The notes beneath the pieces were generated by a model. The model made no database searches, had not been told where the DNA came from, and worked only from the letters and a program-made list of their open reading frames with translations. DNA of 64,000 nucleotides, from contig JAJDYR010000018.1 in NCBI GenBank assembly GCA_022825065.1, positions 33,606 to 97,605 on the forward strand. Direction: 5' to 3'. How positions within the stretch are numbered: the stretch's first letter is position 1; each line of letters begins with the position of its first letter. The translations under genes and the position numbers were made by a program. Positions 16,570 through 64,000 of this stretch are shown in pieces. The stretch is from a bacterium. Its GTDB lineage: Bacteria > UBA8248.

Positions 16570-16992
16570 ATGACGGAATTCGAAACCGCAACCCTCGCAA
16601 TCCAGCAAGCCACCCTCGCGGCGCAGCAGGCCTCCGTTTGGGTCGCCGCTCTCGTCGGGGCCGCGCAGTGCTCCCTGATCGCGTATGGCCTCTACTTCAT
16701 GCGCCAGGCCGCGCGTCACCGGGATGCCCAGCACCGCGAAACCATGGAGGCGATGGATCGCAGTCACCGCGAATCCATGGAGGTGATGGATCGCCGGCAT
16801 CGCGAATCCATGGAGGTGATTGAAGGCCGGCACCGCGAACACATGGAGGGGATTGACAGCCGGCACCGCGAACACATGGCGGCGCTGGCCGTCCAGCGCG
16901 AGGCGGAAAAAGATCGGCACCGCGAATCCATGGCGGCGCTTGCAGACCAGAGCGAGGCGCTCAGGGAACTCATACGGCGCACCTCACAATAG
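16570..16992 (+). CDS. Membrane-anchored protein with tandem 11-residue repeats (HRESMEVMDRR-type), unknown function
   Basis: Hydrophobic segment VWVAALVGAAQCSLIAYGLYFMRQAAR, then at least 6 tandem 11-aa repeats (DAQHRETMEAM / DRSHRESMEVM / DRRHRESMEVI / EGRHREHMEGI / DSRHREHMAAL ...). A paralog with the same architecture sits at 63584-64000. Confidence 0.55.
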   Translation: MTEFETATLAIQQATLAAQQASVWVAALVGAAQCSLIAYGLYFMRQAARHRDAQHRETMEAMDRSHRESMEVMDRRHRESMEVIEGRHREHMEGIDSRHREHMAALAVQREAEKDRHRESMAALADQSEALRELIRRTSQ

Positions 16993-17194
16993 CATTCGCA
17001 CGAGAATCGGACGTTTCACGAGGTAGAGCGGCCATAGAGAGCCGCCCTGCTGCAGGTTCGTTTCGAAACGCGGGAGATGCGCAGCCGGACAGGGCAGGGG
17101 CCGCATTCATGAATCAATCGACGTTGACTCGCCGGTAAGTGAATTTGAATTTGGAGGGACAGATCGCGACCTGTCCCTACCCCTCTCTCGGCTT

Positions 17195-17330
17195 GAAAAC
17201 CAACCCCCCCTACCCCCCCTTGTCAGGGGGGCAAGAAAAAGCAAACCCCTCTCAGCATGGCGGGGACGCATCGCCTTTTTATACCCCCCTGTTAAGGGGG
17301 GGTAGGGGGGGTTGCCTTTATCCCCTGAGG
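17195..17330. repeat. MITE-like inverted-repeat element, copy C (spacer in opposite orientation)
   Basis: Same terminal inverted repeats. The spacer is the reverse complement of copy A's spacer. Confidence 0.8.
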
Positions 17331-17424
17331 ACTCGCTCTTGCCGGGGAGTTGTTCCGCCGGTAGGGTGGTGCGGACGTTCGGGGACGAACGAGGCGGCGA
17401 AGCCTCCCCGCGCGGAATGGAGGG

Positions 17425-19284
17425 ATGATGATGGAACGCAAGCCGGAATCCCGCCGCAAGTTGATAAAGGCGGGCGATTTCATTCGTGTCGGCGCACTGG
17501 ATGAGCTCAAGCGCGAGCGCATGAAAGTGGTGAGCGGCCGGCGCCATCCCATCCTCGTGGTGTATGAGGGGGGCCGCGTTCACGCGCTCGACAACCGCTG
17601 TCCCCATCTCGGCTTCCCGCTCCACCGGGGGTCGGTGGAGAACGGCATCCTCACCTGCCACTGGCATCACGCCCGCTTCGATCTCGAGAGCGGCTGCACC
17701 TTCGATCTGTGGGCCGACGACGTGCCGAGGGCCAGGGTCGAGGTGCGGGGCGATGCGGTCTGGGTCGCGGCCGATTGCAGTTATCCCGACGAGGGCGACT
17801 ACTGGCGCACGCGGCTCGGCGACGCCATGGCGCACGACCTGGACCTGGTGTCCGGGAAGGCGGTGCTCGGCCTGCTCGATCGATCCGTTGCAAGCGCCGA
17901 TATCCTCGCCGACGCCTTCCTGTTCGGCGCGCGGAACCGCGACGACTGGAGCGCCGGTTCCACGATTCTGGCCGCGCTGGCGAACGTGCTGCCGGCCCTC
18001 GATGAGGACGACCGCTATCTCGCGCTGTTCAAGGGCATCTCCGAGGTGGCCGGCGACTGCGCCGGCGAGATGCCGCGCCGCGACCGCAAGCCCCTGGCCG
18101 ATGCCGCGCCGTCGCGGGACACCATGCGGGGCTGGCTCCGGCACTGGTCCCTGGTGCGCCACCGCGACGGCGCGGAGCGCACCGTGCTCACCGCGATCGC
18201 CGCCGGCGCGACGCCCGCGGAACTCGCCGAACTCCTGGTCACCGCACAGACCGATCGCTACTACGCCGATCGCGGCCACAGCCTCGATTTCATCAACAAG
18301 GCGATGGAGTGCCTCGACGCCATCGGCTGGCGGCACGCCGGGGCCATCCTGCCCACGGTGGTCAAGACCATGGTGGCGGCGCGCGGCGAGGAGGAGGCGA
18401 ACGCCTGGCGCCACCCGCTCGATCTGGTGCCCCTCCTGGAGGCGGCCTTCGCCGAATTGCCTGAGCTTTTCAGGAAGGGGGGAGAGGCGAAGGGCGTCTG
18501 GCGGGATCACCGCGCGCTGGCCGGGGCCATCCTCGGCGAGGAGGCCGGGCCCATCATCGCCGCCTTGGGCGCCGCAGTCGCCGCCGGCGCCCGGCCGACG
18601 GACCTCTCCCGCGCGCTCGCCTATGCGGCGGCGATCCGCGTGGCGCGATTCGGCGCCTCGAACGAGTTTTCCGACTGGAACGCGGCGCTTCACGCCTTCA
18701 CCTACGCCAACGCGTTGCATCAGGCTCTGAAGCGCATCACCGCGGCGGGGGAGGCGCCGCCCGAGGCCCAGGCCAACGTGGTGCGCGGCGTGTTCCACGG
18801 CGCCATGGCGGTCTATACGAACCGCTTTCTCAACGTGCCCCCGGCCCGGCTGCCGGAGGAGGAGCCTGCGGCGCTGGCCCGGCTCCCCGGGGACGCGGCG
18901 GCGCTCCGCCAGGGCCTGCTCGATACGATGGACCGCCAGCAGCAGGTCCAGCCGGCGGCGCGGCTGGTCGCCCGGTATTTGGACCAGGGCCACGACCCCG
19001 CAGGCATCATCGCGACGCTCGGCCATGCGCTCCTGCGCGAGGACGCGAGCTTTCACATGTTCCAGATGTACGAGGCGGGCGTGCAGCAGTACCGCGAGTG
19101 GGCGGGTGAGCCCGAAGGCGGCCACATTCTGATCGCCGTGGCCCGCTTTCTCGCCGCGCATTCCCCGACCCAGCGCGCCCGCCACCAGACCGCGACCATC
19201 GCCCGCCGGCTGCATCGCGGGGAGAGCGTGCATGAGGGAGAGGGCGGGGACGCGGCGGACATGGAAAGAGAGCAGGCCGGGTAG
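17425..19284 (+). CDS. Rieske [2Fe-2S] domain protein with large C-terminal all-alpha domain of unknown function
   Basis: CPHLGFPLHRG...(17 aa)...CHWHHARF is the Rieske CxH-x17-CxxH motif. The gene is ~72% GC, clearly higher than its neighbours. The antisense ORF 17107..19380 (-) is judged spurious. Confidence 0.7.
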   Translation: MMMERKPESRRKLIKAGDFIRVGALDELKRERMKVVSGRRHPILVVYEGGRVHALDNRCPHLGFPLHRGSVENGILTCHWHHARFDLESGCTFDLWADDVPRARVEVRGDAVWVAADCSYPDEGDYWRTRLGDAMAHDLDLVSGKAVLGLLDRSVASADILADAFLFGARNRDDWSAGSTILAALANVLPALDEDDRYLALFKGISEVAGDCAGEMPRRDRKPLADAAPSRDTMRGWLRHWSLVRHRDGAERTVLTAIAAGATPAELAELLVTAQTDRYYADRGHSLDFINKAMECLDAIGWRHAGAILPTVVKTMVAARGEEEANAWRHPLDLVPLLEAAFAELPELFRKGGEAKGVWRDHRALAGAILGEEAGPIIAALGAAVAAGARPTDLSRALAYAAAIRVARFGASNEFSDWNAALHAFTYANALHQALKRITAAGEAPPEAQANVVRGVFHGAMAVYTNRFLNVPPARLPEEEPAALARLPGDAAALRQGLLDTMDRQQQVQPAARLVARYLDQGHDPAGIIATLGHALLREDASFHMFQMYEAGVQQYREWAGEPEGGHILIAVARFLAAHSPTQRARHQTATIARRLHRGESVHEGEGGDAADMEREQAG

Positions 19285-19292
19285 GGCAGACC

Positions 19293-19448
19293 GTAGGGAC
19301 AGGCCTCCGTGCCTGTCCGGGGCCGTGTATCCGTGTATTGAATCGATTGCAGAGGGGGACCCATAGGGCAGGGCGGCCACGGAGGGCCGCCCCTACGGGT
19401 TCGTTGTGATTTTGCGGTTTGTAGGGACAGGTCGCGACCTGTCCGGGG
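19293..19448. repeat. Composite REP-like cluster
   Basis: Units: gtagggacaggcctccgtgcctgtccgggg; agggcagggcggccacggagggccgcccctac; gtagggacaggtcgcgacctgtccgggg. Same composite architecture as the clusters flanking hicBA. Confidence 0.65.
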
Positions 19449-19464
19449 TTCGGCGTGTCCGCTG

Positions 19465-19600
19465 GATTGGTCGGAAAACCAACCCCCCCTACCCCCCCTT
19501 GTCAGGGGGGTATAAAAAGGCGATACGCCCCCGCAGGGTTGAGGGGGTTTTGCTTTTTCTTGCCCCCCTGTTAAGGGGGGGTAGGGGGGGTTGGTTTTCA
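19465..19600. repeat. MITE-like inverted-repeat element, copy D
   Basis: Terminal inverted repeats with GAAAACCAACCCCCCC / GGGGGGGTTGGTTTTC extensions. Confidence 0.8.
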
Positions 19601-19942
19601 AGGCGGGGAGGCGAGCGCGTCCGGTCAAGAAAAAAAGGGCCGACACCCCTCGAAGGGCTGCTTTCAGGGGTTGTTGAAAAACCCCCGAGTGTGGGAACTG
19701 CTGCGACACATTCCCCGAGGTGCAGGCCGAGTCGGGGTGTCGGCTGCTTTCATGAAACGCGAACAGGGGCTGCCCGTTGTTCCCGTTCCCGGCTCGAGGA
19801 CTCAAACTCACAGCAAGGAGCGGTACAGTTTGCTCTATCACGAGGGAAGCAACCAACGGGCAACCCCCTTTTCGCTCTTTCCTTCATCTCGCCTTGGACC
19901 CCGGGGCTAGAGCCCCGAGGCCGAAGGCATTCTGCTCTTCTT

Positions 19943-22498
19943 CTATTCCTTCATGTAGCGCGTGCCGAATGCGCCGGCTACTGCGCCATTAGAGAAATTC
20001 GAGTTGAACTCACCCACCAGAACTGGGGGCGGTGCTACACCAGTTCCAACAGCCTCACCATCACCGGAGAATGTCCCCGACCAAGTGGACGTATCAGATG
20101 CCATGCCCTTTGATGTTCCGGTAATGCTGGCAGAACTAAGAACACCAGATGCGGTCGCCATGGTTACTTCCCACTCGTTGGCCTCTCCGCCTGATAGTTC
20201 AAAGTCCGAAATTGTCCCATGCACGGAATTGTGTTTGTCTGCGGCCACGGAAGTCTCTGCCCCGAAATAAGCCGTAAGGGCTACGTCCGCCGTGAACGTT
20301 CCTGCAGACCTGGCATCAAGAGAATTATCTGGATTCACGGTGTTGTAAACGTATACTCCGTGAGCGCCACCTTCATATTTCGCGCTTCCAGCTACAACAC
20401 TTCCTATATTCGTATTAGCGTCAAGACTTGAACCAGCGAAAGTCTGAACGGCATCGTAGGTGGTTTTGCCATCCTTGACGGTTTTCATGAGCCAGAAGCC
20501 ATAGTGCAGGTAATCATCATCCGCTACGGATACCATGGCCCCTGCGTCTGGCTTGAACTGCCATTCGCCCGTAATAGTGGTTATTTTCCCGTCCGCGTCG
20601 GTGACTGCCGTACAAGCGGCATTCACACATTCGAATGTTCCAGCCGCACCATCAAAAGTTCCCCTAAACTCACCTTCATTTCTATTTTCGGTTGTAGTGT
20701 CATCAGCAGGCAAGTTTGTGGTAGTAGTAGGCGCACTTGATATTCTGCTGGAAGCTACCTTGCCCACATCCGCCGTTTCGTCCAATTCATATGTGGTGCG
20801 TTGGTCACCAGTCCTCTCTGGGTCAGCGTCTCCCACCGTAAGAGTATACACAGAACTAAACGGCTCTGATTCAGGCGCCTCAATATCTGTCATGACACTT
20901 ACTATTTCTGAAACTCCTTTTCCGTTATCACGGACATACTTACCGTCCATCATCACGAACTTGGGGTCATTTTTCAGTGGCAAGGCAGGGTCCGTAACTT
21001 CTACCGATACAGAACCACTTTTATGAGAAATCTTCAGGGTATATTGATCGGCGGCATCAGTATCATCGAATGCCGGCGAGGTGGCGTCAGGCGTGGCGGT
21101 TGATTCAGCCGTTATGGCATCCGCTTTAGTCTTGACCATTTCATTCATAGCCTTTTTCGCAGCCGCCGCTTCCTCCATTTCTTCTTCTTCACGCCTCTTT
21201 TCTTCAGCTACTCTATCGGCCTCTTCCTTGGCGGCTACAACCATTCCGGCGAAACGCTCAACCGCAGCTTTTGCGGTCTCGGCTTTAGCCTGGGCGGCTT
21301 CCGCGTCAGCCGATGTAGTGGCGGCCGCGGCTTCATCGTTCGCGGCTTTCGCGTCCGCGACGGCATCTTCCGCCCGCGCGTAAGAGGCTTCGTCAGCAGC
21401 TTTCTGCTCATCCGTGAGGGCCGCAAGCGCCGCCTTCGCGTCCATGTACGCCTGCATGGCGGCCCCCTGCGCGGTCGAGAGCGCGGTCGCTTCCATGTGC
21501 GCGACCGTCACCATGCTAGCGTATTTCCTGGCATCGGCCAGCGCGCTTTCGGCGGCCATCTGGGCGGCTTCCGCATCCGCCGCTGTTTCGGCATTTTCCG
21601 CCCTTACTTTCGCGGCAAGCGCGTCCTCGAGAGCTCTCATGGCTATGTTGTAAGAAACGGAGTCGGCATCGCCTTGGCCCGCGATTGCATCCAGTGCAGC
21701 CTGCGCGGCATTAGCGGCCACTTCCGCGGCACCACGAGCGACTCTTATAGCGGACATTTCGGCCGCCAGATTGTCGGCAGCCGTTTTCGCGTCCGCTACC
21801 ATGTCGGCGTATCTCTGGACATCTGCGAGCGCGGCTTCCACGTCCGCCTGGGCAGCCTTCGCGGCTTCCGATGTGGTTGCCGCGTTCGCCATTGCGAGTG
21901 CTTCTTGAGCGGCCTCGTTCGCGACCTTGGCTCTCACGTATGAGTCGATGTCATGGGCTTTATTCGCCTCTGCGTCCGCCAATAAACTGGCCGCCATATC
22001 GGCCGCAGTCTTTGCGGCTTGCTTGGCGGTATCGAGCGCCATGGCTTCTTGCTGCCGATCCATTTCTGCCTGATCGGCCGCGGTCTTCGCGTCCGCTACC
22101 ATGCCGGCATACTTTTCAGCATCCGCTTGGGCCGCTTCTGCTTTCGCCTGCTCCGCCTTCGCAGCTTCCGATGTGGTTGCGGCTGCGGCCGCGTCACTCG
22201 CGGCTTTCGCGGCCGTGAGAGCGATTCGGGCTGCAGCATATGAGTCTGGATCGACACTCGCATCCGCCATCACGCCATCGACCGCCGTCATGGCAGCCGT
22301 ATACGCCGCCTTGGCGGCATTCTGCGCGGCTTCGAGAGCGGCGGCCTCGGCCGCGATCTCCTCATCCGTCGGGCCGGTCATCGGCGGTTCTGCCGTTCCG
22401 CTACCTCCGCCGCCGCCGCAGCCCGCCAGCGTCAGCGCGAACACGGCCGCCAGCGCGAAAGCGTAGAACTTGTGAATATACTTGTGTTTGAACTTCAT
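19943..22498 (-). CDS. Surface lipoprotein with Ala-rich internally repeated coiled-coil region and TbpB-like C-terminal beta-barrel domain
   Basis: Lipobox LTLAGC after the signal peptide. ~4 internal repeats of ~100 aa (TTSEAAKA..EKYAGMVADAKTAAD), also visible as DNA repeats at ~21700-21850 and ~22020-22160. C-terminal 300 aa is Gly/Ser/Thr-rich and ends ...GEFNSNFSNGAVAGAFGTRYMKE, like TbpB/fHbp-type handle-barrel lipoprotein C-termini. The 3' third of the gene is ~50% GC against ~65% locally. Confidence 0.75.
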   Translation of the reverse strand: MKFKHKYIHKFYAFALAAVFALTLAGCGGGGGSGTAEPPMTGPTDEEIAAEAAALEAAQNAAKAAYTAAMTAVDGVMADASVDPDSYAAARIALTAAKAASDAAAAATTSEAAKAEQAKAEAAQADAEKYAGMVADAKTAADQAEMDRQQEAMALDTAKQAAKTAADMAASLLADAEANKAHDIDSYVRAKVANEAAQEALAMANAATTSEAAKAAQADVEAALADVQRYADMVADAKTAADNLAAEMSAIRVARGAAEVAANAAQAALDAIAGQGDADSVSYNIAMRALEDALAAKVRAENAETAADAEAAQMAAESALADARKYASMVTVAHMEATALSTAQGAAMQAYMDAKAALAALTDEQKAADEASYARAEDAVADAKAANDEAAAATTSADAEAAQAKAETAKAAVERFAGMVVAAKEEADRVAEEKRREEEEMEEAAAAKKAMNEMVKTKADAITAESTATPDATSPAFDDTDAADQYTLKISHKSGSVSVEVTDPALPLKNDPKFVMMDGKYVRDNGKGVSEIVSVMTDIEAPESEPFSSVYTLTVGDADPERTGDQRTTYELDETADVGKVASSRISSAPTTTTNLPADDTTTENRNEGEFRGTFDGAAGTFECVNAACTAVTDADGKITTITGEWQFKPDAGAMVSVADDDYLHYGFWLMKTVKDGKTTYDAVQTFAGSSLDANTNIGSVVAGSAKYEGGAHGVYVYNTVNPDNSLDARSAGTFTADVALTAYFGAETSVAADKHNSVHGTISDFELSGGEANEWEVTMATASGVLSSASITGTSKGMASDTSTWSGTFSGDGEAVGTGVAPPPVLVGEFNSNFSNGAVAGAFGTRYMKE

Positions 22499-23040
22499 TT
22501 AGTGAGTCCTCCTGAATACATAGAAAAAGGGATTTTCAGTGAATTTCCGGCTTTCTCCGATTAACCTCCTTTCCTTCTCGATATACGGGCCTTCACAAAC
22601 TGGTCATTCGTATTTCGGGCCGCCCGGAGGACGGCGGACTTGCGGCCTCATCGTCCGGGCTGGTATGAACTCTTTCCGCGACACACGAATTCCTGAGGTA
22701 TGCGCGCACCTTTCTTTGGTCTCCTAAGGCGAGCGGTCTGCCCGCCGCTAATTGTCGTTACGGGACGCCGGAAGCCCCGTTCTCCGCCGGGAGAGCCGTT
22801 CCGGGGCGCGCGCGGGCCGCGAATGAGCGAAAAAAGACGGAAAACGGCGCCCGAAAACTCCTCCCGGGACCCCGGAATTGCGCTTGACATGGTTTTGAGA
22901 GGTGTTATATTGTCTGATAACGACAATTATCGGATATCAAGAAGCCATTTCGGTCATAACCGGCCGCCGCCGTCATGCCTGCGTCGGACATAGATGCGGA
23001 TGACGGCCCTTCATGTATCGCTGAACCCCGGCATGACGAT

Positions 23041-23200
23041 TGAAAGCCGCAGCCGCCGTAGGGGCCGTTCGTGAACGGCCCTTGTCGGAGAAGCGGGCGG
23101 TTCGCGAACCGCCCCTACGGGTTCGTTGCGATTTGCGTGGTTGTTGTAGGGACAGGCCTCCGTGCCTGTCCGGGGTCGCGACCTGTCCGAGGCCCCCGCG
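23041..23200. repeat. Composite REP-like cluster (left direct repeat flanking hicBA)
   Basis: gtaggggccgttcgtgaacggcccttgtcggagaagcgggcggttcgcgaaccgcccctacgggttcgttgcgatttgcgtggttgttgtagggacaggcctccgtgcctgtccgggg. Near-identical composite recurs at 23885-24030 in the same orientation. Confidence 0.7.
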
Positions 23201-23389
23201 CCTGTTCTTGCGATTCCGCAACCGCAGATGGCCGTCATTGTGATACACTCTGCCGCAGACGTGGATCGGCGGCTCCTGAATGATCGTCGTGTAGAGCCGC
23301 CGTATAAGTTCGGACGAACGCTTGAGGGCCGGGCCCTGGAGGTGAAGATTGCTGAATTTGCCCGATGTCGAGCGTAGGGAGGGGAACCC

Positions 23390-23593
23390 GTGAAACTCAA
23401 GGTAGTCGTTCACGAGGCGGAAGAAGGTGGATATTGGGCCGAGGTCCCGGCTGTTCCAGGGTGTGCGACGCAGGGAGATACGTTCGAGGAGTTGTTGAGC
23501 AATCTCTACGAGGCGGTCGAAGGGTGCCTCTCCGTGGACGTCCAGGAGGTGGACGTTTCGGGCGCGGGCAGGGTCGTCGAGATCGCCGTGTGA
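23390..23593 (+). CDS. hicB: Type II toxin-antitoxin system HicB-family antitoxin (UPF0150-like)
   Basis: MKLKVVVHEAEEGGYWAEVPAVPGCATQGDTFEELLSNLYEAVEGCL matches the HicB N-terminal RNase H-like domain pattern (V.EPEEGGY.V..P.LPGC.TQGDT.EEAL.N..EAIE). Confidence 0.8.
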   Translation: MKLKVVVHEAEEGGYWAEVPAVPGCATQGDTFEELLSNLYEAVEGCLSVDVQEVDVSGAGRVVEIAV

Positions 23594-23796
23594 AAATCGT
23601 CAGTGGAAAGCGCTTTTGCCGCATACTGGAAGCGAAGGGCTGGAAACTGGCGCGCACCCGCGGCAGTCACCGCATTTACGCGAAACGGGGTTCGGACATC
23701 CGCATCTCGGTGCCGGTGCATGGCGAAGCGTCGCTCAAACGCGGCTTGCAGAGGCATCTCATGAAGCTGGCGGATATCAAGGATTCCGAACTGTAG
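23590..23796 (+). CDS. hicA: Type II toxin-antitoxin system HicA-family mRNA interferase toxin
   Basis: GTG start overlaps the hicB stop (GTGA). VKIVSGKRFCRILEAKGWKLARTRGSHRIYAKRGSDIRISVPVHGEASLKRGLQRHLMKLADI matches the HicA/YcfA consensus (G.E..K.L...GW.L.R..GSH....). It is the C-terminal part of track ORF 23365..23796. Confidence 0.8.
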   Translation: MKIVSGKRFCRILEAKGWKLARTRGSHRIYAKRGSDIRISVPVHGEASLKRGLQRHLMKLADIKDSEL

Positions 23797-23884
23797 GCCA
23801 GGAGCAAGGACGACGCAATATATCCACCCTTATCGGCCCTGGCCAACCTGTTGGTTGTCACCGACATTCACCGGAATGACGAAC

Positions 23885-24030
23885 AAACGTCGCAGCCACC
23901 GTAGGGGCGGTTCGCGAACCGCCCTTGCCGGAGAAACGGGCGCTTCACGAAGCGCCCCTACGGGTTCGTTGCGATTTGCGTGGTTTCTGTAGGGACAGGT
24001 CGCGACCTGTCCAGGGTCTCTGCGCCTGTC
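23885..24030. repeat. Composite REP-like cluster (right direct repeat flanking hicBA)
   Basis: gtaggggcggttcgcgaaccgcccttgccggagaaacgggcgcttcacgaagcgcccctacgggttcgttgcgatttgcgtggtttctgtagggacaggtcgcgacctgtccaggg. Confidence 0.7.
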
Positions 24031-24044
24031 GAAGGGGACGCCCG

Positions 24045-24215
24045 AAAACCAACCCCCCCTACCCCCCCTTGTCAGGGGGGTATGAAAAAGCGACACCCCA
24101 GCGAAGGGAAAAAGCGACACCCCGGCGAAGGGGGAAAAGAAAAGAAGGTCCCCCCGACAGGGGGGAGCAAAAAAAGACCCCCCTGACAAGGGGGGGTAGG
24201 GGGGGTTGCCTTTAT
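24045..24215. repeat. MITE-like inverted-repeat element, copy E (1.5-copy variant)
   Basis: Left arm, then a spacer with an extra half-arm (ccccccgacaggggggagcaaaaaaagacccccctgacaagggggggtagggggggttgcctttatc). Confidence 0.8.
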
Positions 24216-24247
24216 CCCTTGTTAAGGGCGGCCACGGAGGGCCGCCC

Positions 24248-33482: not shown

Positions 33483-33527
33483 GCGGGTTTCTCCCCTTCG
33501 GGGTTGTTGGAAAAGTCTCCCTTGTCT

Positions 33528-33680
33528 GGGGATAAAGGCAACCCCCCCTACCCCCCCTTGTCAGGGGGGTCTTTTTTTGTTCCCCCCTGTCGGGGGGACT
33601 TTTTTTCTTTTACCCCCTTCGTCGGGGTGTTGCTTTTTTATACCCCCCTGACAAGGGGGGTAGGGGGGGTTGGTTTTCAA
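33528..33680. repeat. MITE-like inverted-repeat element, copy F (variant spacer shared with copy I)
   Basis: gataaaggcaaccccccctacccccccttgtcagggggg ... cccccctgacaagggggggtagggggggttggttttc. Confidence 0.8.
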
Positions 33681-33736
33681 GGCGAGAGGGCATCCTTCGA
33701 TACGGCGCTTGCGCGCCTACTCAGGATGAGGTGGAT

Positions 33737-33781
33737 AGGGTTTTTTCAACAACCCCCTTGCCGGGGGGCTGTTGAAAAACC
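33737..33781. repeat. Small palindrome tttttcaacaaccccc-ttgcc-gggggctgttgaaaaa
   Basis: Inverted repeat read directly. Partial copies of the gttgttgaaaaa motif occur at 13945, 19668 and 40253. Confidence 0.4.
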
Positions 33782-33999
33782 CTACTCCGACCCTCACGAA
33801 CTGAACGAGATCGCTCTGTAGGGGCCGCATATTATGCGGCCCTGCCTTTTACCGACAAAACACGGGACCGTCCCCTGCAATTCAGGTGGCACCCCGCCGG
33901 CATGACGACAGTGGGTCATCTCGAGAAGTTGAAAAATAGTAACGTATAAGTTACCTTTATCGAATGATCGAGATACCGCATACACGAGGAGAACTAACC

Positions 34000-34317
34000 A
34001 TGCCACTCACGCGGGATTTCAGGGAAACGATTCAGGCAAGGGTTCAGCGCGACCCGGCCTTCCGGGAGGAGTTGTTGAAAGAAGGAGTCGAATCCCTCCT
34101 CTCGGGCGAGATGGAAGTCGGCAAGGCGGCCCTGCGCGATTTCATCAACGCGACGGTGGGCTTCGAGACCCTGGGTTCTCTCACAGGGAAATCACCCAAG
34201 AGCCTCATGCGCATGTTCGGGCCCGATGGCAATCCACAGGCCAGGAACCTCTTCGACGTCATCGCCCGGCTCCAGGAAAGCGAGGGGCTCAGGCTCGAAG
34301 TGCGCGCGGTTCGTTAG
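34000..34317 (+). CDS. Putative addiction-module antidote protein (HTH antitoxin of the RelE/ParE-like killer family), apparently orphan
   Basis: MPLTRDFRETIQARVQRDPAFREELLKEGVESLLSGEMEVGKAALRDFINATVGFETLGSLTGKSPKSLMRMF...VRAVR follows the conserved pattern of this antidote family. No toxin-sized ORF lies upstream; only REP units at 33822-33848 do. Confidence 0.6.
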   Translation: MPLTRDFRETIQARVQRDPAFREELLKEGVESLLSGEMEVGKAALRDFINATVGFETLGSLTGKSPKSLMRMFGPDGNPQARNLFDVIARLQESEGLRLEVRAVR

Positions 34318-34387
34318 ATTTTATGGGCGACCACAGGGGTGGCGGACATATATGTCTGACCGTGTATCCGCCCGCTCTTGCTGGAAA

Positions 34388-34540
34388 GGCAACCCCCCTC
34401 TTGTCTGAGGATAAAGGCAACCCCCCCTACCCCCCCTTAACAGGGGGGCAAAAAATGCAAAGCCCCCTCAGCCCGGCGAAGGCGCATCGCCTTTTTATAC
34501 CCCCCTGACAAGGGGGGGTAGGGGGGGTTGCCTTTCAAGA
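34388..34540. repeat. MITE-like inverted-repeat element, copy G
   Basis: Left-arm partial duplication (ggaaaggcaacccccctcttgtctgaggataaaggcaaccccccctaccccccc) and the canonical right arm. Confidence 0.8.
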
Positions 34541-34690
34541 CAGGCCGCGAAATTCCCCGAAGCGATTTTGCTCTCCGGCCTTTTCTTTTATAAGATGCCC
34601 CTATGTAGGATGAAATTTCATTTTACACGCGGCTGTGCCCCTCGATCCGGGCCGGCCTTTCTTTGTTGATGCGCATGGGAGGAGCGTCCG

Positions 34691-36998: not shown

Positions 36999-37200
36999 CC
37001 GGAAAGGCAACCCCCCCTACCCCCCTTAACAGGGGGGTAAAAAAAGACGATGCGCCCCGCCGGGCTGAGGGGGCTTTGCTTTTTCTTTCCCTCCTGACGA
37101 AGGGGGTAAAAAGACGACGCCCGCTGACGGAGGGGTTTTTGGTTCTTCATACCCCCCTGACAAGGGGGGGTAAGGGGGGGTTGCCTTTATCCCCTGACTA
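36999..37200. repeat. MITE-like inverted-repeat element, copy H (1.5-copy variant), ending 40 bp upstream of the molybdoenzyme start codon
   Basis: ggaaaggcaaccccccctacccccttaacagggggg ... atacccccctgacaagggggggtaagggggggttgcctttatcccctgactaagggggg. Confidence 0.8.
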
Positions 37201-40191: not shown

Positions 40192-40279
40192 CCTGTCCGA
40201 GGTCGCGATTTGTCCTATCGGTCGGATTTGAAATTCACTCCCCCCTTGAGTGGACTGTTGAAAAAGCATTTATCAAAAG

Positions 40280-40425
40280 AATAACCCCCCCTACCCCCCC
40301 TTAACAGGGGGGTCTTTTTGTTGCTCCCCCCTGTCGGGGGGACCTTTTTTTCTTTTACCCCCTTCGTCGGGGTGTTGCTTTTTTATACCCCCCTGATAAG
40401 GGGGGGTAGGGGGGGTTGCTTTTCC
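40280..40425. repeat. MITE-like inverted-repeat element, copy I
   Basis: Same arms. The spacer variant matches copy F (ggggggtctttttgttgctcccccctgtcggggggacc...). Confidence 0.8.
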
Positions 40426-55496: not shown

Positions 55497-55607
55497 TATA
55501 CGCTCGCATCCTGAAAACCGGAGAAGCGGAGGCGCAACAGCGGGCTTTCTTGACATGATGATTCGCGACTGAATCGCCAGGACAATTACCCTTGGAGGAT
55601 AAAACCG

Positions 55608-56855: not shown

Positions 56856-56924
56856 GGCTTTTCGCTGGACGCTGGAGATTCGGGTTCGAGGGGGTAGTTT
56901 GGCGTGTAGTTTTTCTCCTCGGAG

Positions 56925-58558: not shown

Positions 58559-58765
58559 TCTAAGTCCTGGTGCGATGCGCTTTTAAACAAACGGGCCGGG
58601 TGGTTTCTTTGGATTATAAAATATAGAACTCAAGTCTGGTTTGGCAATAAGATTTCAGAATGACGCATCATTTCCATAAGCTGCAAGAAACACCGGCGTT
58701 GCTGAACTGGAACGAATCTTTCGGGTGCAAGCCCGGGGTACGGCCATTTTCCAGGAATTGTCCTG

Positions 58766-59500
58766 TCAGTTTTTTCCCTGAGTTTCAGGCAATTGACGGA
58801 GCAAGGCGGAAAGTCGGGAGGAATCATTGAAGACTTTCTCCGTTCTTTTGAGGCGCTCATACACTTCTATGATCCTCAGGATATATCGGCGTGTCTCCTG
58901 GAAAGGAGGAATCCCGTTATACCGCCGGATGTTGGCGGGCCCCGCATTATAAGAGGCCAGCGCCATATGCAAATTCCAACCGTATCGTTCGAGTAAATAT
59001 CGTAGATACCGCACCCCGCCCTCGATGTTGTCACCGATGTCGAAAATATCGTTCAGGCCCAGATGTCTGGCGGTAATCGGGTTGATTTGCATCAGGCCTT
59101 TAGCGCCATTTTGAGAAACGGCTGTTGGGTCGAAGTTGCTCTCCACCTCGATGACGGCTCGCACCAGCAGGGGATCGACTCCATAGAGCTTGGCGTAATG
59201 ATCTATGTGCCAGAAGATTCCACGATTCCCGGTACCGAAGCTTCCACCCGCCGATGAAGCTCTATCGTCGTCAGCATGAAGTTTCGAGGCGGGGAATGGA
59301 ATCGCTTTTCGTTCTATCAACTCGGTAAGAGTCATCAGAGGTTGTTTGAAAAGAATGAAGGCGCCGGCCAGGACAATTCCGGCCAGCGGCAGTATCCGAA
59401 TTCCCAATCCGGATTTCCGTCGACCACGGGATAAGCTCGCTAGCTCGAACATTGACAGCAGAAGGTAAATGGCAATCAGGGTGAAAATAACGAGATTCAT
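58766..59500 (-). CDS. Lytic transglycosylase (SLT-domain), membrane-anchored
   Basis: N-terminal TM helix; SLT catalytic motif VIEVESNFDPTAVSQNGAKGLMQI and AYNAGP. Confidence 0.8.
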   Translation of the reverse strand: MNLVIFTLIAIYLLLSMFELASLSRGRRKSGLGIRILPLAGIVLAGAFILFKQPLMTLTELIERKAIPFPASKLHADDDRASSAGGSFGTGNRGIFWHIDHYAKLYGVDPLLVRAVIEVESNFDPTAVSQNGAKGLMQINPITARHLGLNDIFDIGDNIEGGVRYLRYLLERYGWNLHMALASYNAGPANIRRYNGIPPFQETRRYILRIIEVYERLKRTEKVFNDSSRLSALLRQLPETQGKN

Positions 59501-59714
59501 ATCAACTGCCCCAGGGATTGCATCTGAATGAGCATCAGTTGAAGGCTTCTCTTTTAGATTCCATCAGGCGACGACACGTAAGCGCAAGATCAATACCCTG
59601 CGCGAAGTGGAAATAATTCGGCGGGCTTGGATTGGTGCAATGCTGCGCTGCTGTTTCCTGACCAAAATAAAGGATAGAAAACCATCGGCAAGTGCGCAAG
59701 CGGCGGTTGGCGCA

Positions 59715-60350
59715 TTATATCAGATCCAGAATATCCTCTAATTTTTCCAGATATTTATCCGGGTTTAATTTTCGTATCTCACTGTGCTGGGAGTATTTTC
59801 CCTTGATGATCCATGCCGGGATAGATGCGTTTCTGGCGGCTTGCAAGTCCGTCGTCGTGTCCCCGACCATGACGACCTCATCTGGTTTCACTTCCAGCGA
59901 TTCGATGGCGGCGAACAGCATTTCAGGGTCCGGTTTCGGCGCATAGCCCTGACGGTGCCCGAATACCGTTTGAATGTAGGGCAAAAGCCCGACATGCTCT
60001 AACTGCTCCTTGCAGAAAAACCATGCCTTGTTCGAAACGCAAGCCATCCGAATGCCCCGGTGGGCGAGGGTTTCGAGTGTTTTTTTCACCCCGGGGATGA
60101 TATGGGTGCCTGCAGCGTTATGAACCTTGTAATGGGAGCGGTAGATGCGCACCGCCTCTTCGGCCGTGTCCCCGCCCCATAGTTCGGTGAATCTGTCCTC
60201 GAGCGTGGGGCCGATGGATGCAAGGATTTCCGCTTCGCTCATTTCGGGCACGCCCAGGTCGCGGCACATGAGGCGCATGCATTTGGCGATGCCCTCGTAG
60301 CTGTCGACAAGCGTGCCGTCGTGGTCCAGAAGGAGCGCGCGTATAGCCAT
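59715..60350 (-). CDS. HAD-family hydrolase (phosphoglycolate phosphatase-like)
   Basis: LLDHDGTLVDS motif I, motif II S/T, and MVGDTTTDLQAA motif IV. Confidence 0.8.
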   Translation of the reverse strand: MAIRALLLDHDGTLVDSYEGIAKCMRLMCRDLGVPEMSEAEILASIGPTLEDRFTELWGGDTAEEAVRIYRSHYKVHNAAGTHIIPGVKKTLETLAHRGIRMACVSNKAWFFCKEQLEHVGLLPYIQTVFGHRQGYAPKPDPEMLFAAIESLEVKPDEVVMVGDTTTDLQAARNASIPAWIIKGKYSQHSEIRKLNPDKYLEKLEDILDLI

Positions 60351-60425
60351 ATGGTACTCTCCATCCAGGCGTGCATAACCATGTTATGATTCAAACCGGA
60401 AGCGAAATCGGCAAACCATAACACC

Positions 60426-61580
60426 ATGAGCCCATCTATGAAACAGGACGTGAAATCAAAAATCGCAACACATCAGGCGGGTCTGCGGCCTGCCACCCGG
60501 CCTGTCGAGCTCGTCGGCATGGATGAGGAGGAACTCGTCTCCTTATGCGGGCAGATGGGAGAACCCCCCTACAGGGGCCGGCAGATATTCTCGTGGCTAT
60601 ATGCTCACGGTGTGAGCGAGTTCTCTCAAATGACCAACATTCCCAAGGGTTTTCGGGCAAAGCTTGGGGAAGCGGCCCGCCTGGAGGCTCTCGAACTCGA
60701 CCGGGAGAGCAAAAGTGCGGACGGCACGGAAAAATATGTGTGGCGGCTTCGTGACGGCGCGCGGGTCGAGAGCGTCCGGATACCGATGAGAAACGTGAAC
60801 GGCGTCATGCGGTGGTCTCTTTGTATATCTACGCAGGTCGGATGCGCGATGGGATGCGCGTTTTGCCTGACGGCGAAGATGGGTTTCATCAGGCAGTTGA
60901 CGGCCGGTGAGATCGTCGGCCAGTTTCTCGCCGCAAGAAGGCTGCTCGCCCGGGGGGAGCGTTTTCACAACGTCGTGTTCATGGGAATGGGGGAGCCGCT
61001 CGATAATTTCGGCGCCACCGTAAAGGCGGTGAGAATCCTGACGCACCCGCGCGCGAACGGCGTCAGCGCAAAAAGGCTGACGGTATCGACGGTGGGGATT
61101 GTCTCGAGGCTTCGGGATTTCGTCTCCGCTGTTCCGGGCGTGGGACTGGCGGTATCGCTTCATGCGGCGGATGATGAAACCAGGGGAAAACTCGTACCGG
61201 TGAACCGCAAGTGGAATCTGAGGGCGCTGATTGATGAATGCCGGGAGTTGCCGGTCGGCGAACGGCGCCGCATCACTTTTGAATACGTGATGCTCCGGGG
61301 CGTGAATGACTCGAAACGAGACGCGAAGGAGCTCTCAAAACTCCTGGAGGGGCTCAAGTGCAAGGTAAACCTGATGCCCTGGAATCCGTTTCCGGGAACG
61401 CCGTTCGAGCGGCCCGGCGATGAGCGCGTCGAGGAATTCCGCCGCATCCTCCTGGCCGCCGGCCTGGTGGCCACCACGCGCACGGCCAAGGGAGTCGATA
61501 TCCTCGCGGCGTGCGGGCAGCTGGCCGATAGCAGCCGCCTGGACGGCCCGGGCGGCCTGAAACAGCTTAACCCCTTATAG
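60426..61580 (+). CDS. rlmN: 23S rRNA (adenine2503-C2)-methyltransferase, radical SAM
   Basis: CISTQVGCAMGCAFC radical-SAM cluster and RlmN/Cfr family core. The true start may be internal (near residue 25-30). Confidence 0.85.
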   Translation: MSPSMKQDVKSKIATHQAGLRPATRPVELVGMDEEELVSLCGQMGEPPYRGRQIFSWLYAHGVSEFSQMTNIPKGFRAKLGEAARLEALELDRESKSADGTEKYVWRLRDGARVESVRIPMRNVNGVMRWSLCISTQVGCAMGCAFCLTAKMGFIRQLTAGEIVGQFLAARRLLARGERFHNVVFMGMGEPLDNFGATVKAVRILTHPRANGVSAKRLTVSTVGIVSRLRDFVSAVPGVGLAVSLHAADDETRGKLVPVNRKWNLRALIDECRELPVGERRRITFEYVMLRGVNDSKRDAKELSKLLEGLKCKVNLMPWNPFPGTPFERPGDERVEEFRRILLAAGLVATTRTAKGVDILAACGQLADSSRLDGPGGLKQLNPL

Positions 61581-61587
61581 ATCAATC

Positions 61588-61680
61588 GGTTAATTTCCGT
61601 GAAATTTATCGGAAAACCTCGTGAATTTATCGGTATTTATCTTATTTTTCGGAATTGTCCGGTTGAAACCAAAGATGCGG
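61588..61680. repeat. AT-rich conserved ~90-bp module, copy 2; ATGCGGG/TTGCGGG motifs follow at 61672-61755
   Basis: caatcggttaatttccgtgaaatttatcggaaaacctcgtgaatttatcggtatttatcttattttt aligns block-wise with 13548-13640. Confidence 0.5.
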
Positions 61681-61762
61681 GAAGCGCCCCTTGCCCGCGC
61701 GCCCGGTATGTTGGTATACCTCTCCCCTGGGGAGACACGGGCGCGGCAATTGCGGGTTCATG

Positions 61763-62560
61763 CGCGACACAATGCAGCACGATGGATGCACCGACATGGC
61801 GGATGAAAATCCGGAAACGGCAGACCTCATCAAAGAGCTTTCCAGCGGCATTTCTTCGGTTCTCAAGAGCCATCAGGAACTCTCGGAAAAGTTCGATGCG
61901 CTCGAAGCGCGCGTGCGCCACATCGAAGAAGCAGGCTCCGCCGGCGCTCCCCGGGCGGAAGGGGGAGACGATGAGGAGTACGATTACCGCGTGCTGCTCC
62001 ACGCCCGCACCTACACGATAGAAGACGTCGATGGCCGCACCGCGCGCATGGAGAGCGTGCGGCGCTGCCTGGCCCAGCGGGAGTTGTCCCGCGTGAAGAC
62101 GCGCTACCACACGGGCAGCGGCGACAGGGAGGTGGCCTATTCCTGCCGTCTCCTGGAAGATGAGGAAGCCGACCCCCCCTGGACGCTCCTGGAATACCGG
62201 ATCGAGAAGCAGGCGGGCGCCGATTATTCCGCCAGTCTCGCTCTGCCCGAGCCGATTCGGGCGGGCGCGCTCTTCGAACTTCGCCACGAACTCCTCCTGC
62301 GCGATTCGTTCACGTCGCGGAACGAGTGGGTCACCCTGGTCGTCGAATATCCCACCGACGAATTCCGGCTCGAAGTGCTCATCCCCCCCGGCCGCAAGCT
62401 GGTGGGCGCGCGCCGCGAGGAATCCCAGGGCGCGTCGAACAGCTTCAACAAGCGCCGCGTCTACCCCCGCCTTCTGAACGAAACCGGCCAGACCCGCCTG
62501 GAGTGGCGCGAAGCCGGCCCCGTCACCGGCAGGGCCTATACGCTGTTCTGGGATTGGTAG
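61763..62560 (+). CDS. Hypothetical protein
   Basis: Long ORF (track 61691..62560). Start shifted to the first ATG beyond the intergenic repeat module; no clear RBS, so the start is uncertain. No recognisable domain. Confidence 0.45.
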   Translation, partial: RDTMQHDGCTDMADENPETADLIKELSSGISSVLKSHQELSEKFDALEARVRHIEEAGSAGAPRAEGGDDEEYDYRVLLHARTYTIEDVDGRTARMESVRRCLAQRELSRVKTRYHTGSGDREVAYSCRLLEDEEADPPWTLLEYRIEKQAGADYSASLALPEPIRAGALFELRHELLLRDSFTSRNEWVTLVVEYPTDEFRLEVLIPPGRKLVGARREESQGASNSFNKRRVYPRLLNETGQTRLEWREAGPVTGRAYTLFWDW

Positions 62561-62691
62561 GGGGGGTATTTCGGGGCAATCCATTTTGTCTGTAGATGAG
62601 CCTGTTGCAAGAATTCAATTTTTGCAGGTAATCTCATAGACAAGGCGTTGTTTGTTTTCGAAAAAGACCTGTCTTATGGAGGGTCTCGGTC

Positions 62692-62931
62692 ATGCAAGTG
62701 TTGGACAGGCAGATCGCGTATTTTCAGCAGCACCAGACGCAACTCGCCGAGGAGCATCACGGCGAATTCGTGTTAATCCACGCCGAGTCGGTAGAGGGTT
62801 TCTACGAATCGGAACTGGATGCTTACACCGCCGCCAAGCGCCGCTACGACGCCGGCGCGTTTCTCATCCGGCAATGCCTTAGACCCGAAGAAGAAACGAC
62901 CCAAATGTTTCATTCCCGGATAGCGATATAA
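62692..62931 (+). CDS. Small hypothetical protein, DUF5678-like (tentative)
   Basis: 79 aa. HGEFVLIHAESVEGFYESELDAYTAAKRRYDAGAFLIRQC resembles the pattern recalled for small DUF5678-type proteins (G.YVAI.d.kV.g..d...A...A...G....LI..V). Candidate sigma70 promoter ttgcaa-N18-taatct lies upstream at ~62607-62636. Confidence 0.45.
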   Translation: MQVLDRQIAYFQQHQTQLAEEHHGEFVLIHAESVEGFYESELDAYTAAKRRYDAGAFLIRQCLRPEEETTQMFHSRIAI

Positions 62932-63058
62932 CGGGTTTTTCCATCGGGCGAACCCCCACCCCCTTTCTCACCCCGTCCCCTTTCTGCTAGACTCCGCGCT
63001 TTCGCAGGCCCCGAAAGGGGTGTTTCGTTCATCACGTTTCAAGGGAGAATGCGCCATC

Positions 63059-63373
63059 ATGCTGGAGCCTGAAATTTTTGTGGTCGACCTCACGGAGAAT
63101 TTCGGCGGGGAAATCCTCGCGGACGGACGGGTGAAGACGACGCGGGAGCAACTCGAGGGCTGCGCCGCCAAGTTCGGCGCGAGCGTCTCGGTGAGCCATG
63201 CCAAAAACTTCGAACTCGGCGTCCACGTGCCGACCATCACGGTGCGTCGCCTCGAGAAAAAGGGCAGGAAGACCGAGACCGAACTCCTGTTCTTCTCCTA
63301 CGAGGGCGAGGGCGGCGACATCCTCACCGACCCCGCCGAATGGGGCCGCGTGCCGACGCAGATATTCGGCTAG
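63059..63373 (+). CDS. Hypothetical protein
   Basis: 105-aa ORF from MLEPEIFVVDL (internal start of track ORF 63020..63373). No family recognised. Confidence 0.4.
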   Translation: MLEPEIFVVDLTENFGGEILADGRVKTTREQLEGCAAKFGASVSVSHAKNFELGVHVPTITVRRLEKKGRKTETELLFFSYEGEGGDILTDPAEWGRVPTQIFG

Positions 63374-63583
63374 TCGGTATTTCGGGAGCATCGTTCCCGC
63401 TGCATCACGGAAATGGCCGCCGGGCATACGATGGTGGGGACAGGGCCGTAGCCTTGTTTGAAAGTTCATCTGGTTGTGTGGTTTCATAATGAGGAAGCCG
63501 GGCGTTTGCGCTCCTCACACATTTTCTTTCTAATGTTCACGAGATAACCTGAATGAGGACCCGGAAAGAGAGGATGCGGAAAG

Positions 63584-64000
63584 ATGATCGATTTGCAGCC
63601 GATCAACACGGGAGACCTCATAGGCATCGCGCAATTCGCCGTGGGCGTTACGCAAAGCGCCTTGATCTGGTACGGCCTTTACACCATGCGGGAAGCAACG
63701 AGACAAAGGGAGAAGGCACTCGACGAGATAATCGCACAGGGTAATGAAGGCAGAGAAGCGTTGCGAAAAACAATGGAAAGTTTGGATAAAACGCTCGAAC
63801 GTTTGGATAAATCGGACGAACGTCTGGAAAAATCAACCGCAGCACTGGGAAAATTACTAGAAGGTTCCGAAAAATCAAACGAAACTTTGGAGAAATTACT
63901 AGAAGGTACGCAGAGATCGAACGACTCTTTGGGAAAATTACTGGAAAGTTCACAAAGTTCGAACGAAGCCTTGCGGAAATCAAACGAATCCCTGGGGAAA
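63584..64000 (+). CDS. Membrane-anchored tandem 11-residue-repeat protein (paralog of 16570-16992), 3'-truncated by the window edge
   Basis: ATG at 63584 opens a frame running to the window end: MIDLQPINTGDLIGIAQFAVGVTQSALIWYGLYTMREATRQREKALDEI... followed by 11-aa repeats (LDKTLERLDKS / DERLEKSTAAL / GKLLEGSEKSN / ETLEKLLEGTQ ...). It shares the SxLIxYGLYxMRxAxRxR anchor motif with the 16570 protein. Absent from the ORF track; track ORF 63553..63744 is in another frame. Confidence 0.55.
   Translation, partial: MIDLQPINTGDLIGIAQFAVGVTQSALIWYGLYTMREATRQREKALDEIIAQGNEGREALRKTMESLDKTLERLDKSDERLEKSTAALGKLLEGSEKSNETLEKLLEGTQRSNDSLGKLLESSQSSNEALRKSNESLGK

Follow-up and report, generated by a model that had tools for sequence, protein, structure and literature searches.

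The window analyzed here is a stretch of 64,000 nucleotides (nt) of the bacterial contig JAJDYR010000018.1 (GTDB lineage UBA8248), in which two open reading frames (ORFs) on the plus strand, here named gene 1 and gene 2, truly belong to the same unannotated protein family with a single hydrophobic anchor. Gene 1 is a complete coding sequence at positions 16570..16992 (140 amino acids plus stop). Gene 2, at 63584..64000, is open at the window end; 139 amino acids are seen, and its orthologues have 131-170. Translation recovered both ORFs where a preliminary description of this DNA had placed them. That description had also observed that the second copy was overlooked by the ORF list, and it is absent from the list because end-truncated ORFs are dropped and gene 2 runs past the window end. 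No third member was found by a six-frame motif scan of the window.

Two paralogous genes with a single anchor

The protein encoded by gene 1 is ordered as MTEFETATLAIQQATLAAQQAS-VWVAALVGAAQCSLIAYGLYFM-RQAARHR-DAQ-(HRETMEAMDRS HRESMEVMDRR HRESMEVIEGR HREHMEGIDSR HREHMAALAVQREAEKDR HRESMAALADQ)-SEALRELIRRTSQ. Its N-terminal tail (residues 1-22, 16570..16635), which opens with MTEFETATLA and includes Q-rich heptads, is predicted to lie outside the membrane. The tail is followed by a predicted transmembrane helix, VWVAALVGAAQCSLIAYGLYFM (residues 23-44, 16636..16701), with the invariant G30, Q33, G40, and M44 and a maximum Kyte-Doolittle 19-residue mean (KD19) of 1.72, and by the basic juxtamembrane stretch RQAARHR (residues 45-51, 16702..16722) with a near-invariant R51. 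Six H-R-E-x-M units, identified by Tandem Repeats Finder (TRF) and the family logo, constitute the rod (16732..16950). They begin at residues 55, 66, 77, 88, 99, and 117, which gives spacings of 11, 11, 11, 11, and 18, and TRF reported a period of 33 nt (11 amino acids; 4.8 copies, 84% matches) at 16731-16888. The C-terminal cap SEALRELIRRTSQ (16951..16989) contains the invariant L134 and R137, and the cap motif was present as EALRELIRRTSQ. The GC content of the gene was computed as 64.8%, lower than the 68% or so first reported, and that of the window as 60.7%. AlphaFold2 (AF2) modeled the protein as a single uninterrupted helix over residues 2-139 (mean pLDDT 92.9). A Foldseek comparison of this model with the PDB, one of the checks proposed in the preliminary description, returned no matches, as expected for a single helix.

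Upstream of gene 1, a sigma-70-like promoter site on the plus strand was identified at 16492..16521 (TTGACG, an 18-nt spacer, and TAGATT), where a consensus scan found one site against 0.2 expected. The conserved 5' leader (16536..16569, plus strand), as read from the sequence, consists of GAGGACCCAC followed by GGTGGGAGA, and a Shine-Dalgarno (SD)-like GGGAGA is located at 16557-16562, 8 nt 5' of the ATG. A 162-amino-acid ORF overlaps gene 1 on the antisense strand. In comparison with orthologues, the ratio of nonsynonymous to synonymous substitution rates (dN/dS) was 0.28-0.32 in the sense frame and approximately 1 in the overlapping antisense frame, which is interrupted by a stop codon in a relative.

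The leader of gene 2, GAGGACCCGGAAAGAGAGGATGCGGAAAG (63555..63583, plus strand), was identified by sequence reading and motif match, and the same leader precedes the orthologue in a related locus, L051. The element GAGGACCC was also found 29 nt upstream of gene 2. A search for a consensus sigma-70 promoter upstream of gene 2 found none. The hydrophobic anchor of gene 2, LIGIAQFAVGVTQSALIWYGLYTM (residues 12-35, 63617..63688, plus strand), aligns with that of gene 1. Its maximum KD19 of 1.38 is borderline, and a seven-residue piece, FAVGITQ, is absent from the anchor of some relatives. The repeats, located by TRF at 63776..63967, include 21-nt units (7 amino acids, LDK(T/S)xE(R/G); 2.8 copies, found twice) and 42-nt units (14 amino acids, EKLLEGSxKSNExL; 3.3 copies). 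At the core positions, Leu and Leu/Met/Asn occur where the gene 1 type has His/Met. For an orthologue of gene 2, AF2 predicted two helices, all-helical, with low confidence.

Gene 2 had a GC content of 47% (41.8% within its repeats), in place of the approximately 50% given earlier. Its orthologue is likewise low in GC (49.5%, versus 59% for its locus), and as this property has been kept at a synonymous divergence (dS) of approximately 0.7, it is a stable feature of the subfamily rather than a sign of recent import. The dN/dS of gene 2 against the orthologue was 0.17 in the sense frame. Across the two genes (0.17-0.32), these values indicate purifying selection. The syntenic orthologue in L051 has 170 amino acids, and the orthologues P0108, P0109, and P0112 end in EALAVLL(Q/K)R(T/S)A, a cap from which gene 2 is cut off by the window end. 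Since the aligned relatives of 131-170 amino acids end in S(T/N)EALAVLL(Q/K)R(T/S)A, gene 2 is estimated to be nearly complete, with about 13-35 codons past the window.

The two genes had been proposed to be paralogues, a proposal that would have fallen had a careful alignment found no similarity. BLASTP aligned them with an E-value of 4e-10, a likeness far above chance, and a profile-profile comparison of the two subfamilies with hhalign gave a probability of 96.5% (E-value 8e-10) over the anchor. The anchor motif first described, S.LI.YGLY.MR.A.R.R, is common to both genes except for its leading "S.", which fits gene 2 only; the exact common motif is Q..LI.YGLY.MR.A.R.R, with QCSLI in gene 1 and QSALI in gene 2. 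The 11-residue repeats attributed to both proteins were recovered in gene 1, with its 33-nt period, but the periods of gene 2 are 7 and 14 residues (21 and 42 nt). G30, Q33, G40, M44, R51, L134, and R137 are invariant in a joint alignment of both subfamilies. Additionally, an intermediate subfamily (P0075 type) combines the termini of gene 1 (MTEFE and ELIRRTS) and H-E-x-M units with the RDKALDELI of gene 2.

An unannotated family and its predicted architecture

The family was defined by the anchor G-x2-Q-x6-G-x3-M-x6-R and the C-terminal AL..LI(E/R)RT. The anchor residues G30, Q33, G40, M44, and R51 were found in gene 1, in gene 2, and in 300 distinct segments of 328 sequences. The N-terminus MTE(F/Y)E.A(S/T)LA is conserved family-wide, and the C-terminal (E)AL..LI(E/R)RT(A/S) is conserved in both subfamilies and in the wider family, for which the consensus was M(T/N/D)E(F/Y)E.A(S/T)LA ... 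VG.GQ(C/I)A(L/V)(I/V)W.G(I/L)R.M.R...R ... [(D)(Q/R)RH(A/E)E(A/T)M.AL]n ... ALE.LIERTAP. Word-indexed searches identified 107 clusters for the gene 1 type, and for the gene 2 type they yielded 25; no cluster has a Pfam domain. The names, which only a few of the clusters carry, read "hypothetical protein, Nitrospinae/Nitrospinota bacterium" and come from metagenome-assembled genomes (MAGs). An exhaustive profile search of 1.84 billion representative sequences recovered 579 clusters (50% identity) at an E-value of at most 1e-3, of which 180 were at 1e-10 or below. The genomes that encode them span 47-72% GC, and the non-repeat N- and C-termini are conserved among them. All long "members" that suggested domain fusions proved to be tandem fusions, or else gene calls affected by a frameshift or by read-through.

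A scan of GTDB species genomes for further members, as the preliminary description had proposed, found 50 loci in about 12 Nitrospinota-like MAGs, with 5-9 scattered copies per genome; as the scan used two peptide patterns only, these copy numbers are lower bounds. One of the loci is from Nitrospinota bacterium COS4_bin_23, and Nitrospinota MAGs from sponges, including Coscinoderma, were described in a study of sponge microbiomes (PMC8163846). Many of the genomes with the family thus appear to be those of sponge-associated Nitrospinota. In genomes of higher GC (66-72%) with proteobacteria-like neighboring genes, the family genes occur in pairs or arrays. For example, locus L055 contains seven copies within approximately 5 kb (2770-7708) and L053 at least three tandem copies (5652-7094), in both cases directly downstream of Kps-type capsule genes (Capsule_synth and an ABC transporter), while a gene pair in L056 adjoins nitrile hydratase. 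The L055 array is broken by a translationally coupled ORF of 630 amino acids without a Pfam match.

The family was provisionally regarded as previously undescribed, and it remained unannotated in every library searched. Scans of 2, 8, and 46 members against Pfam, NCBIfam, PHROGs, and PADLOC returned only sub-threshold coiled-coil noise, the best library match being DUF6479 (22.4 bits against a cut-off of 25.4, in three of 46 members). A profile search of the PDB yielded a single match, to mitochondrial IF1, with an E-value of 0.84 and hence nothing significant. No paper was found by a full-text literature search with the conserved peptides. An origin from mobile elements was considered and rejected, as there were no matches in IMG/VR viral contigs, phage genomes, or plasmids.

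Lys and Arg residues average 3.5 after the hydrophobic segment and 0.5 before it, with an excess on the C-terminal side in 269 of 272 members. By the positive-inside rule, this bias predicts an N-out/C-in topology, with the N-tail outside and the rod in the cytoplasm. The N-terminal flank is acidic (1.2 Asp/Glu on average), lacks a basic n-region, and is not a Sec signal peptide. The hydrophobic segment is of membrane grade (KD19 of at least 1.6) in 83% of the members, and the family median is 1.87.

Conservation in and around the anchor, as measured over the 300 segments, singles out V29/G30, Q33/C34, L36/I37, G40/L41, M44, R51 (present in 98% of the segments), and then D52. The conservation moment peaked at 98-100 degrees per residue, a value reached by 4-8 of 2,000 shuffles, for segments that had been picked by a pattern requiring G, Q, G, and M. 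When a hendecad register (a/e/h) is counted by inspection from M44, it passes through A48, R51, H55, M59, and M62, so that the core of the rod would continue the conserved face of the membrane helix.

At least one H-x3-M unit was found in 237 of the 272 members (approximately 87%). The logo of 1,145 such units reads (D)-x-(R/Q)-H-x-E-x-M-x-A-L, in which the Glu is conserved at 88%, and the H and M stand at 100% as they were fixed by the search pattern. The H, M, and L of a unit share one face (a/e/h), while R(-1) and E(+2) are located one turn apart on its flank. Successive units start 11 (329 cases), 18 (257), or 7 (179) residues apart. Judged by this spacing, the units follow the heptad, hendecad, and 7+11 periodicities of coiled coils, and the 11-residue period that had been taken as the common denominator of the family does not apply to it as a whole.

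Length variation, leaders, and genomic setting

Members of the family range from 82 to 227 amino acids, and whole units account for the changes in length. Such units are LALQQAS-type heptads in the N-tail (0-5 per protein) and FAVGITQ in the gene 2-type anchor, where it may be present or missing; the rod varies in the same manner. For example, over 140 codons gene 1 differs from its L001 orthologue (OZ244799.1) by only 0.006 nonsynonymous (pN) and 0.021 synonymous (pS) changes per site, and the orthologue has one additional 18-residue unit. Such sequence comparisons showed that rod length and the number of N-terminal heptads evolve fast through the gain and loss of whole units. They also showed an amplification of the gene to many copies, each with its own predicted promoter.

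The approximately 90 nt upstream of the paralogues (L001-L050, and 16492-16569 and 63535-63583 in the window) fall into two conserved classes, both of which contain a TTGAC(G/T) -35 box and an extra SD-like GAGGAC 25-35 nt 5' of the ATG. The -35 box and a gene 1-like spacing recur upstream of paralogues in the 50 related loci. L001-L015, L018, L019, L021, L026, and L035 all share the conserved class A leader. It includes an in-frame TTG or GTG 15-18 nt 5' of the ATG, a possible alternative start, and in four class A copies the MTEYE position has a GTG in place of the ATG. A leader hairpin that sequesters the SD element was rejected, as minimum free energy folds differ between the classes and are mostly no better than those of shuffled sequences, and an Rfam search of the window gave no match. 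The element GAGGAC(C/T)CACT, considered as a regulatory sequence common to gene 1 and a nearby lipoprotein gene, was found to be the SD sequence of the latter.

No conserved partner gene was found by clustering the neighbors at the 50 loci, which gave orthologous synteny blocks only, and neighbors were unrelated between each context examined; among the neighbors are cupin, Rieske, 4HBT, and aconitase genes. The lipoprotein gene (19943-22498, minus strand) was rejected as a partner. Its homologues, the one recurrent neighbor, lie within approximately 4 kb in seven of the 50 loci, with varying orientation and distance. The gene encodes a predicted lipoprotein of 851 amino acids (lipobox LTLAGC) without a Pfam match, at a low local GC of 0.51. 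Its internal repeats of approximately 290 nt (21216-22183) are rich in Ala, and its C-terminal domain is rich in Gly and Thr.

Gene 1 is situated in a variable stretch (approximately 13.9-24.2 kb) rich in repetitive extragenic palindromic (REP) sequences of two types. The first type comprises palindromic elements of about 130 nt resembling REPs or miniature inverted-repeat transposable elements (AACCCCCCCTACCCCCCCTTGTCAGGGGGG...CCCCCCTGACAAGGGGGGGTAGGGGGGGTT), at 13965-14100, 15340-15530, 17190-17320, 19474-19605, and 24044-24213, with further copies at 33533-33680, 34412-34536, 37001-37187, and 40276-40423. Such elements are found on either side of gene cassettes and at the points where the window is rearranged in comparison with related genomes; their G7-TA-G7 arms could in principle form G-quadruplexes or i-motifs. 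The second type, GGGCGG.CACG.AGG.CCGCCCCTACGG.TTCGTT ... GTAGGGACAGG(N6-8)CCTGTCC, occurs at 16312-16413, 19354-19405, 23109-23177, 23952-24020, and about 17110-17170; it is found on the upstream side of gene 1, again behind the Rieske gene, and also around 23-24 kb. A HicA toxin-domain ORF (PF07927, E-value 2e-14; 23365-23796) is located in the same region.

The Rieske-domain gene (17425-19284, 619 amino acids, PF00355) lies between two REP copies in inverted orientation (17189-17319 and 19475-19605). The gene order is cupin, gene 1, and Rieske in the window, and cupin, Rieske, and gene 1 in L001 and L002, as seen by comparing the Rieske segment (17320-19474) with L001 3719-5846 and L002 3628-5538. 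L019 and L003 are without the Rieske cassette and everything to approximately 24.2 kb. Similarly, a family member is present at L035 5568-6762, and the syntenic region of the window (33483-34690) has a different small ORF between two REPs. From such differences in presence and order, the family behaves as accessory cargo that is often gained, lost, and shuffled. The small ORF (34000-34317) encodes 105 amino acids without a Pfam match and represents a cassette-like replacement.

Several other features of the window were recorded. The unrelated cupin (15802-16203) and Rieske ORFs both end in ADMEREQAG followed by the stop and have about 35 nt in common at their 3' ends (16165-16206 and 19246-19287), as if a repeat element had supplied the last codons and the stop. 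Relative to window positions 62562-62982, L051 (2115-5418) contains an insertion of approximately 3.3 kb with a DNA methyltransferase and an Eco29kI-type restriction enzyme, which the window lacks. At 174-3285, a tandem duplication of about 1,470 bp (87-90% identity; repeat families D4, D6, and D10) implies adjacent paralogous genes on the minus strand, at 414-1529 and 1885-3087.

A candidate coiled-coil bundle and its alternatives

The architecture is well supported; oligomerization and function we infer. The explanation that we favor, to which we give roughly an even chance, is a parallel coiled-coil bundle in the inner membrane, with a cytoplasmic rod of variable length and a His/Met core that is possibly responsive to metal or pH. 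Each protein is predicted to be essentially one long alpha-helix and a small bitopic inner-membrane protein. The short acidic N-tail, MTE(F/Y)E.A(S/T)LA with 0-5 Q-rich heptads, is predicted to lie outside the membrane, and a single membrane helix with the invariant G-x2-Q-x6-G-x3-M face leads through a basic stretch with its near-invariant Arg into a cytoplasmic rod of 7-, 11-, and 18-residue units, capped by (E)AL..LI(E/R)RT. The helices would pack side by side and in parallel as homo-oligomeric or paralogue-mixed bundles, because one face of the helix carries the conserved residues all the way from the membrane to the rod. Through the H-x-E-x-M core found in about 87% of the members, assembly or ligand would come to depend on metal (Cu/Ag/Zn/Ni-type ligation) or pH, and the gene 2 subfamily, with Leu/Asn in place of His/Met, may be a constitutive, ligand-free version.

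Several observations weigh against this explanation. AF2 returns a straight single helix for amphipathic helices lying on a lipid surface too. The conservation-moment test is partly circular, with R51, V29, I37, L36, and L41 being independent of the search pattern. The anchor of gene 2 is only moderately hydrophobic (KD19 of 1.38), and some relatives have about 17 hydrophobic residues. Soft-metal ligation by His and Met is typical of the periplasm, while the rod is predicted to be cytoplasmic. As the gene 2 subfamily lacks the His/Met core, a response to metal or pH would not be universal in the family, and metal-homeostasis genes were not consistently near the family genes in the contexts examined.

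Among known systems, subunit b of the F-type ATP synthase (PF00430) has a comparable layout, with a short outer N-tail, one N-terminal membrane helix, and a long cytoplasmic helix. In that protein of approximately 150 amino acids, the long helix dimerizes with an 11-residue (hendecad) periodicity. Hendecads of the peripheral stalk have been discussed elsewhere (PMC3293630). Matches of the family to b-subunit models were weak and far below the Pfam and NCBIfam cut-offs, and hhalign gave a probability of 1.2% against Escherichia coli AtpF. Unlike subunit b, the family is not in the atp operon, has at least 5-9 copies per genome and variable length, and differs in its His/Met core and conserved termini. 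YhcB/ZapG (DUF1043), YtxH (DUF948), PspB, FtsB/FtsL, and Rz-type i-spanins, small bitopic proteins of the bacterial inner membrane, likewise have a coiled coil after an N-terminal membrane helix, within about 70-150 amino acids. The DUF948 and Rz-like spanin models matched at noise level only, with none at cut-off; PHROG spanin matches had E-values of 0.02-0.07, and no match to viral contigs or phage genomes was seen. In i-spanins and FtsB/FtsL the coiled coil is periplasmic, in contrast to the rod of the family, for which the charge bias predicts a cytoplasmic location. None of the YhcB, YtxH, PspB, FtsB/FtsL, or i-spanin families is known for at least 5-9 copies per genome or for unit-wise length variation.

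One reading, which is effectively refuted, has no functional family behind the ORFs and sees them as accidents of tandem repeats or of wrongly called frames in GC-rich DNA. Repeats can hold frames open, as the antisense ORF over gene 1 illustrates, but a dN/dS of 0.17-0.32 in the sense frames against approximately 1 in the antisense frame with its stop, the conserved start, SD element, and promoter, and 579 clusters with conserved non-repeat termini in genomes of 47-72% GC all run counter to it. A less likely alternative follows the preliminary description in likening the repeats to the amphipathic helices of apolipoproteins and late embryogenesis abundant (LEA) proteins; tethered helices would then run flat along the membrane's inner face and stabilize or coat the membrane under stress, with no bundle. 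The true tandem 11-mers of gene 1, the high charge of the rods with their narrow apolar stripe, and the predicted continuous helix are indeed like group 3 LEA proteins, apolipoproteins, and alpha-synuclein, and stress protectants such as LEA and GsiB-type proteins are typically small and hydrophilic, built from repeats, and encoded in multiple copies. Weak sub-threshold matches, including DUF948/YtxH and perilipin, also point in this direction, as does the mean hydrophobic moment, for which one heuristic gave 0.39 with apoA-I, 0.29 with gene 1, and 0.45 with gene 2. The heuristic, however, did not separate the rods from apoA-I or alpha-synuclein and so did not discriminate, and no LEA_4, apolipoprotein, or perilipin match at or near the gathering score was found among the 2, 8, and 46 members. 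Furthermore, 7- and 18-residue units occur about as often as those of 11 (7/14 in gene 2, 11/18 in gene 1), and the apolar stripe covers three of 11 positions, one of them His. Unlike these proteins, the family has a transmembrane anchor whose conserved face runs on into the rod, which is not required of a surface-lying helix; because this stripe is continuous, a parallel bundle is preferred over a helix on the membrane surface.

The His/Met units could instead be the main point, in an improbable reading that makes the proteins buffer or deliver metal at the inner membrane face as a "molecular sponge" of H-x-E-x-M units like SilE/PcoE, with any bundle secondary. H and M stand one helical turn apart in 1,145 units with E(+2) conserved at 88%, which recalls the repeated short motifs of SilE/PcoE that pair one His and one Met on the same helical face, and variation in repeat number would tune capacity. 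Ligation by Cys is usual in the cytoplasm, however, where the rod is predicted to be, and the family has a membrane anchor rather than a cleaved signal peptide. SilE binds Ag+ via HxxM/MxxH motifs and becomes helical upon binding (PMC5008109; PMC11904771), whereas the spacing in the family is HxxxM. No likeness to SilE/PcoE or metal-resistance families above noise was seen in the library scans, no cop/cus/czc or sil/pco genes were neighbors in the contexts examined, and the ligands are missing from two subfamilies, the gene 2 type and the QQGEAL type. A similarly slight chance is given to small pore-forming toxins, holins, or viroporin-like channels, in which N-out/C-in helices would oligomerize around Q33/C34, M44, and R51 and the leader would hold expression down as in type I toxin-antitoxin (TA) systems. 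The type III topology, the invariant mid-membrane Gln with small residues on one face, the many scattered copies in REP-rich variable regions beside TA genes such as hicA, the conserved leader with SD-like elements, and the presence/absence polymorphism at syntenic sites (L035 versus the window) are compatible with this, and the topology and the polar Q33 (with C34) on the conserved face are shared with M2-type viroporins of influenza. Against it, members have 82-227 amino acids with a long conserved charged rod and a C-terminal cap, and type I toxins have fewer than 60. No conserved antisense promoter or antitoxin neighbor was seen, the upstream conservation ending at the -35 box, and PHROGs lysis families did not rise above noise. 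In contrast to M2-type viroporins, the family has a long structured rod, no homology to them, and no viral context, and any channel activity is hypothetical; the dN/dS of 0.17-0.32 and arrays of seven intact copies suggest a tolerated, dosage-type product. A more far-reaching idea, which we consider a long shot, is an oligomeric conduit lined by Q33/C34, M44, R51, and the stacked His/Met. It would act as a minimal channel with a single helix per subunit, or a "metal/proton wire", which would connect the periplasm with a coiled-coil reservoir in the cytoplasm and carry Cu(I)/Ag(I)/Zn(II) or protons. The number of repeats would set the capacity of the reservoir, and the Leu/Asn-cored gene 2 type would be a non-conducting partner or regulator in mixed bundles.

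In kind, we rate the family with the bitopic coiled-coil membrane proteins, and as a family it is unannotated. A sizeable group of proteins, with 579 clusters and up to about nine scattered or seven tandem copies per genome, has been missed by all curated libraries, and it was found only in uncultured bacteria, with the expansion to many copies seen in marine ones. If the parallel bundle proposed above is correct, the family would represent a natural experiment in coiled coils, in which a helix runs from the outside through the membrane into a rod whose length changes unit by unit even among near-identical strains. With a rod core of His and Met rather than Leu and Ile, it would also offer experimenters a small system in which to study membrane-anchored coiled coils whose cores are polar or made of metal ligands. 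For the bacteria themselves, it would be a candidate trait that may be tied to a symbiotic or marine-invertebrate niche.

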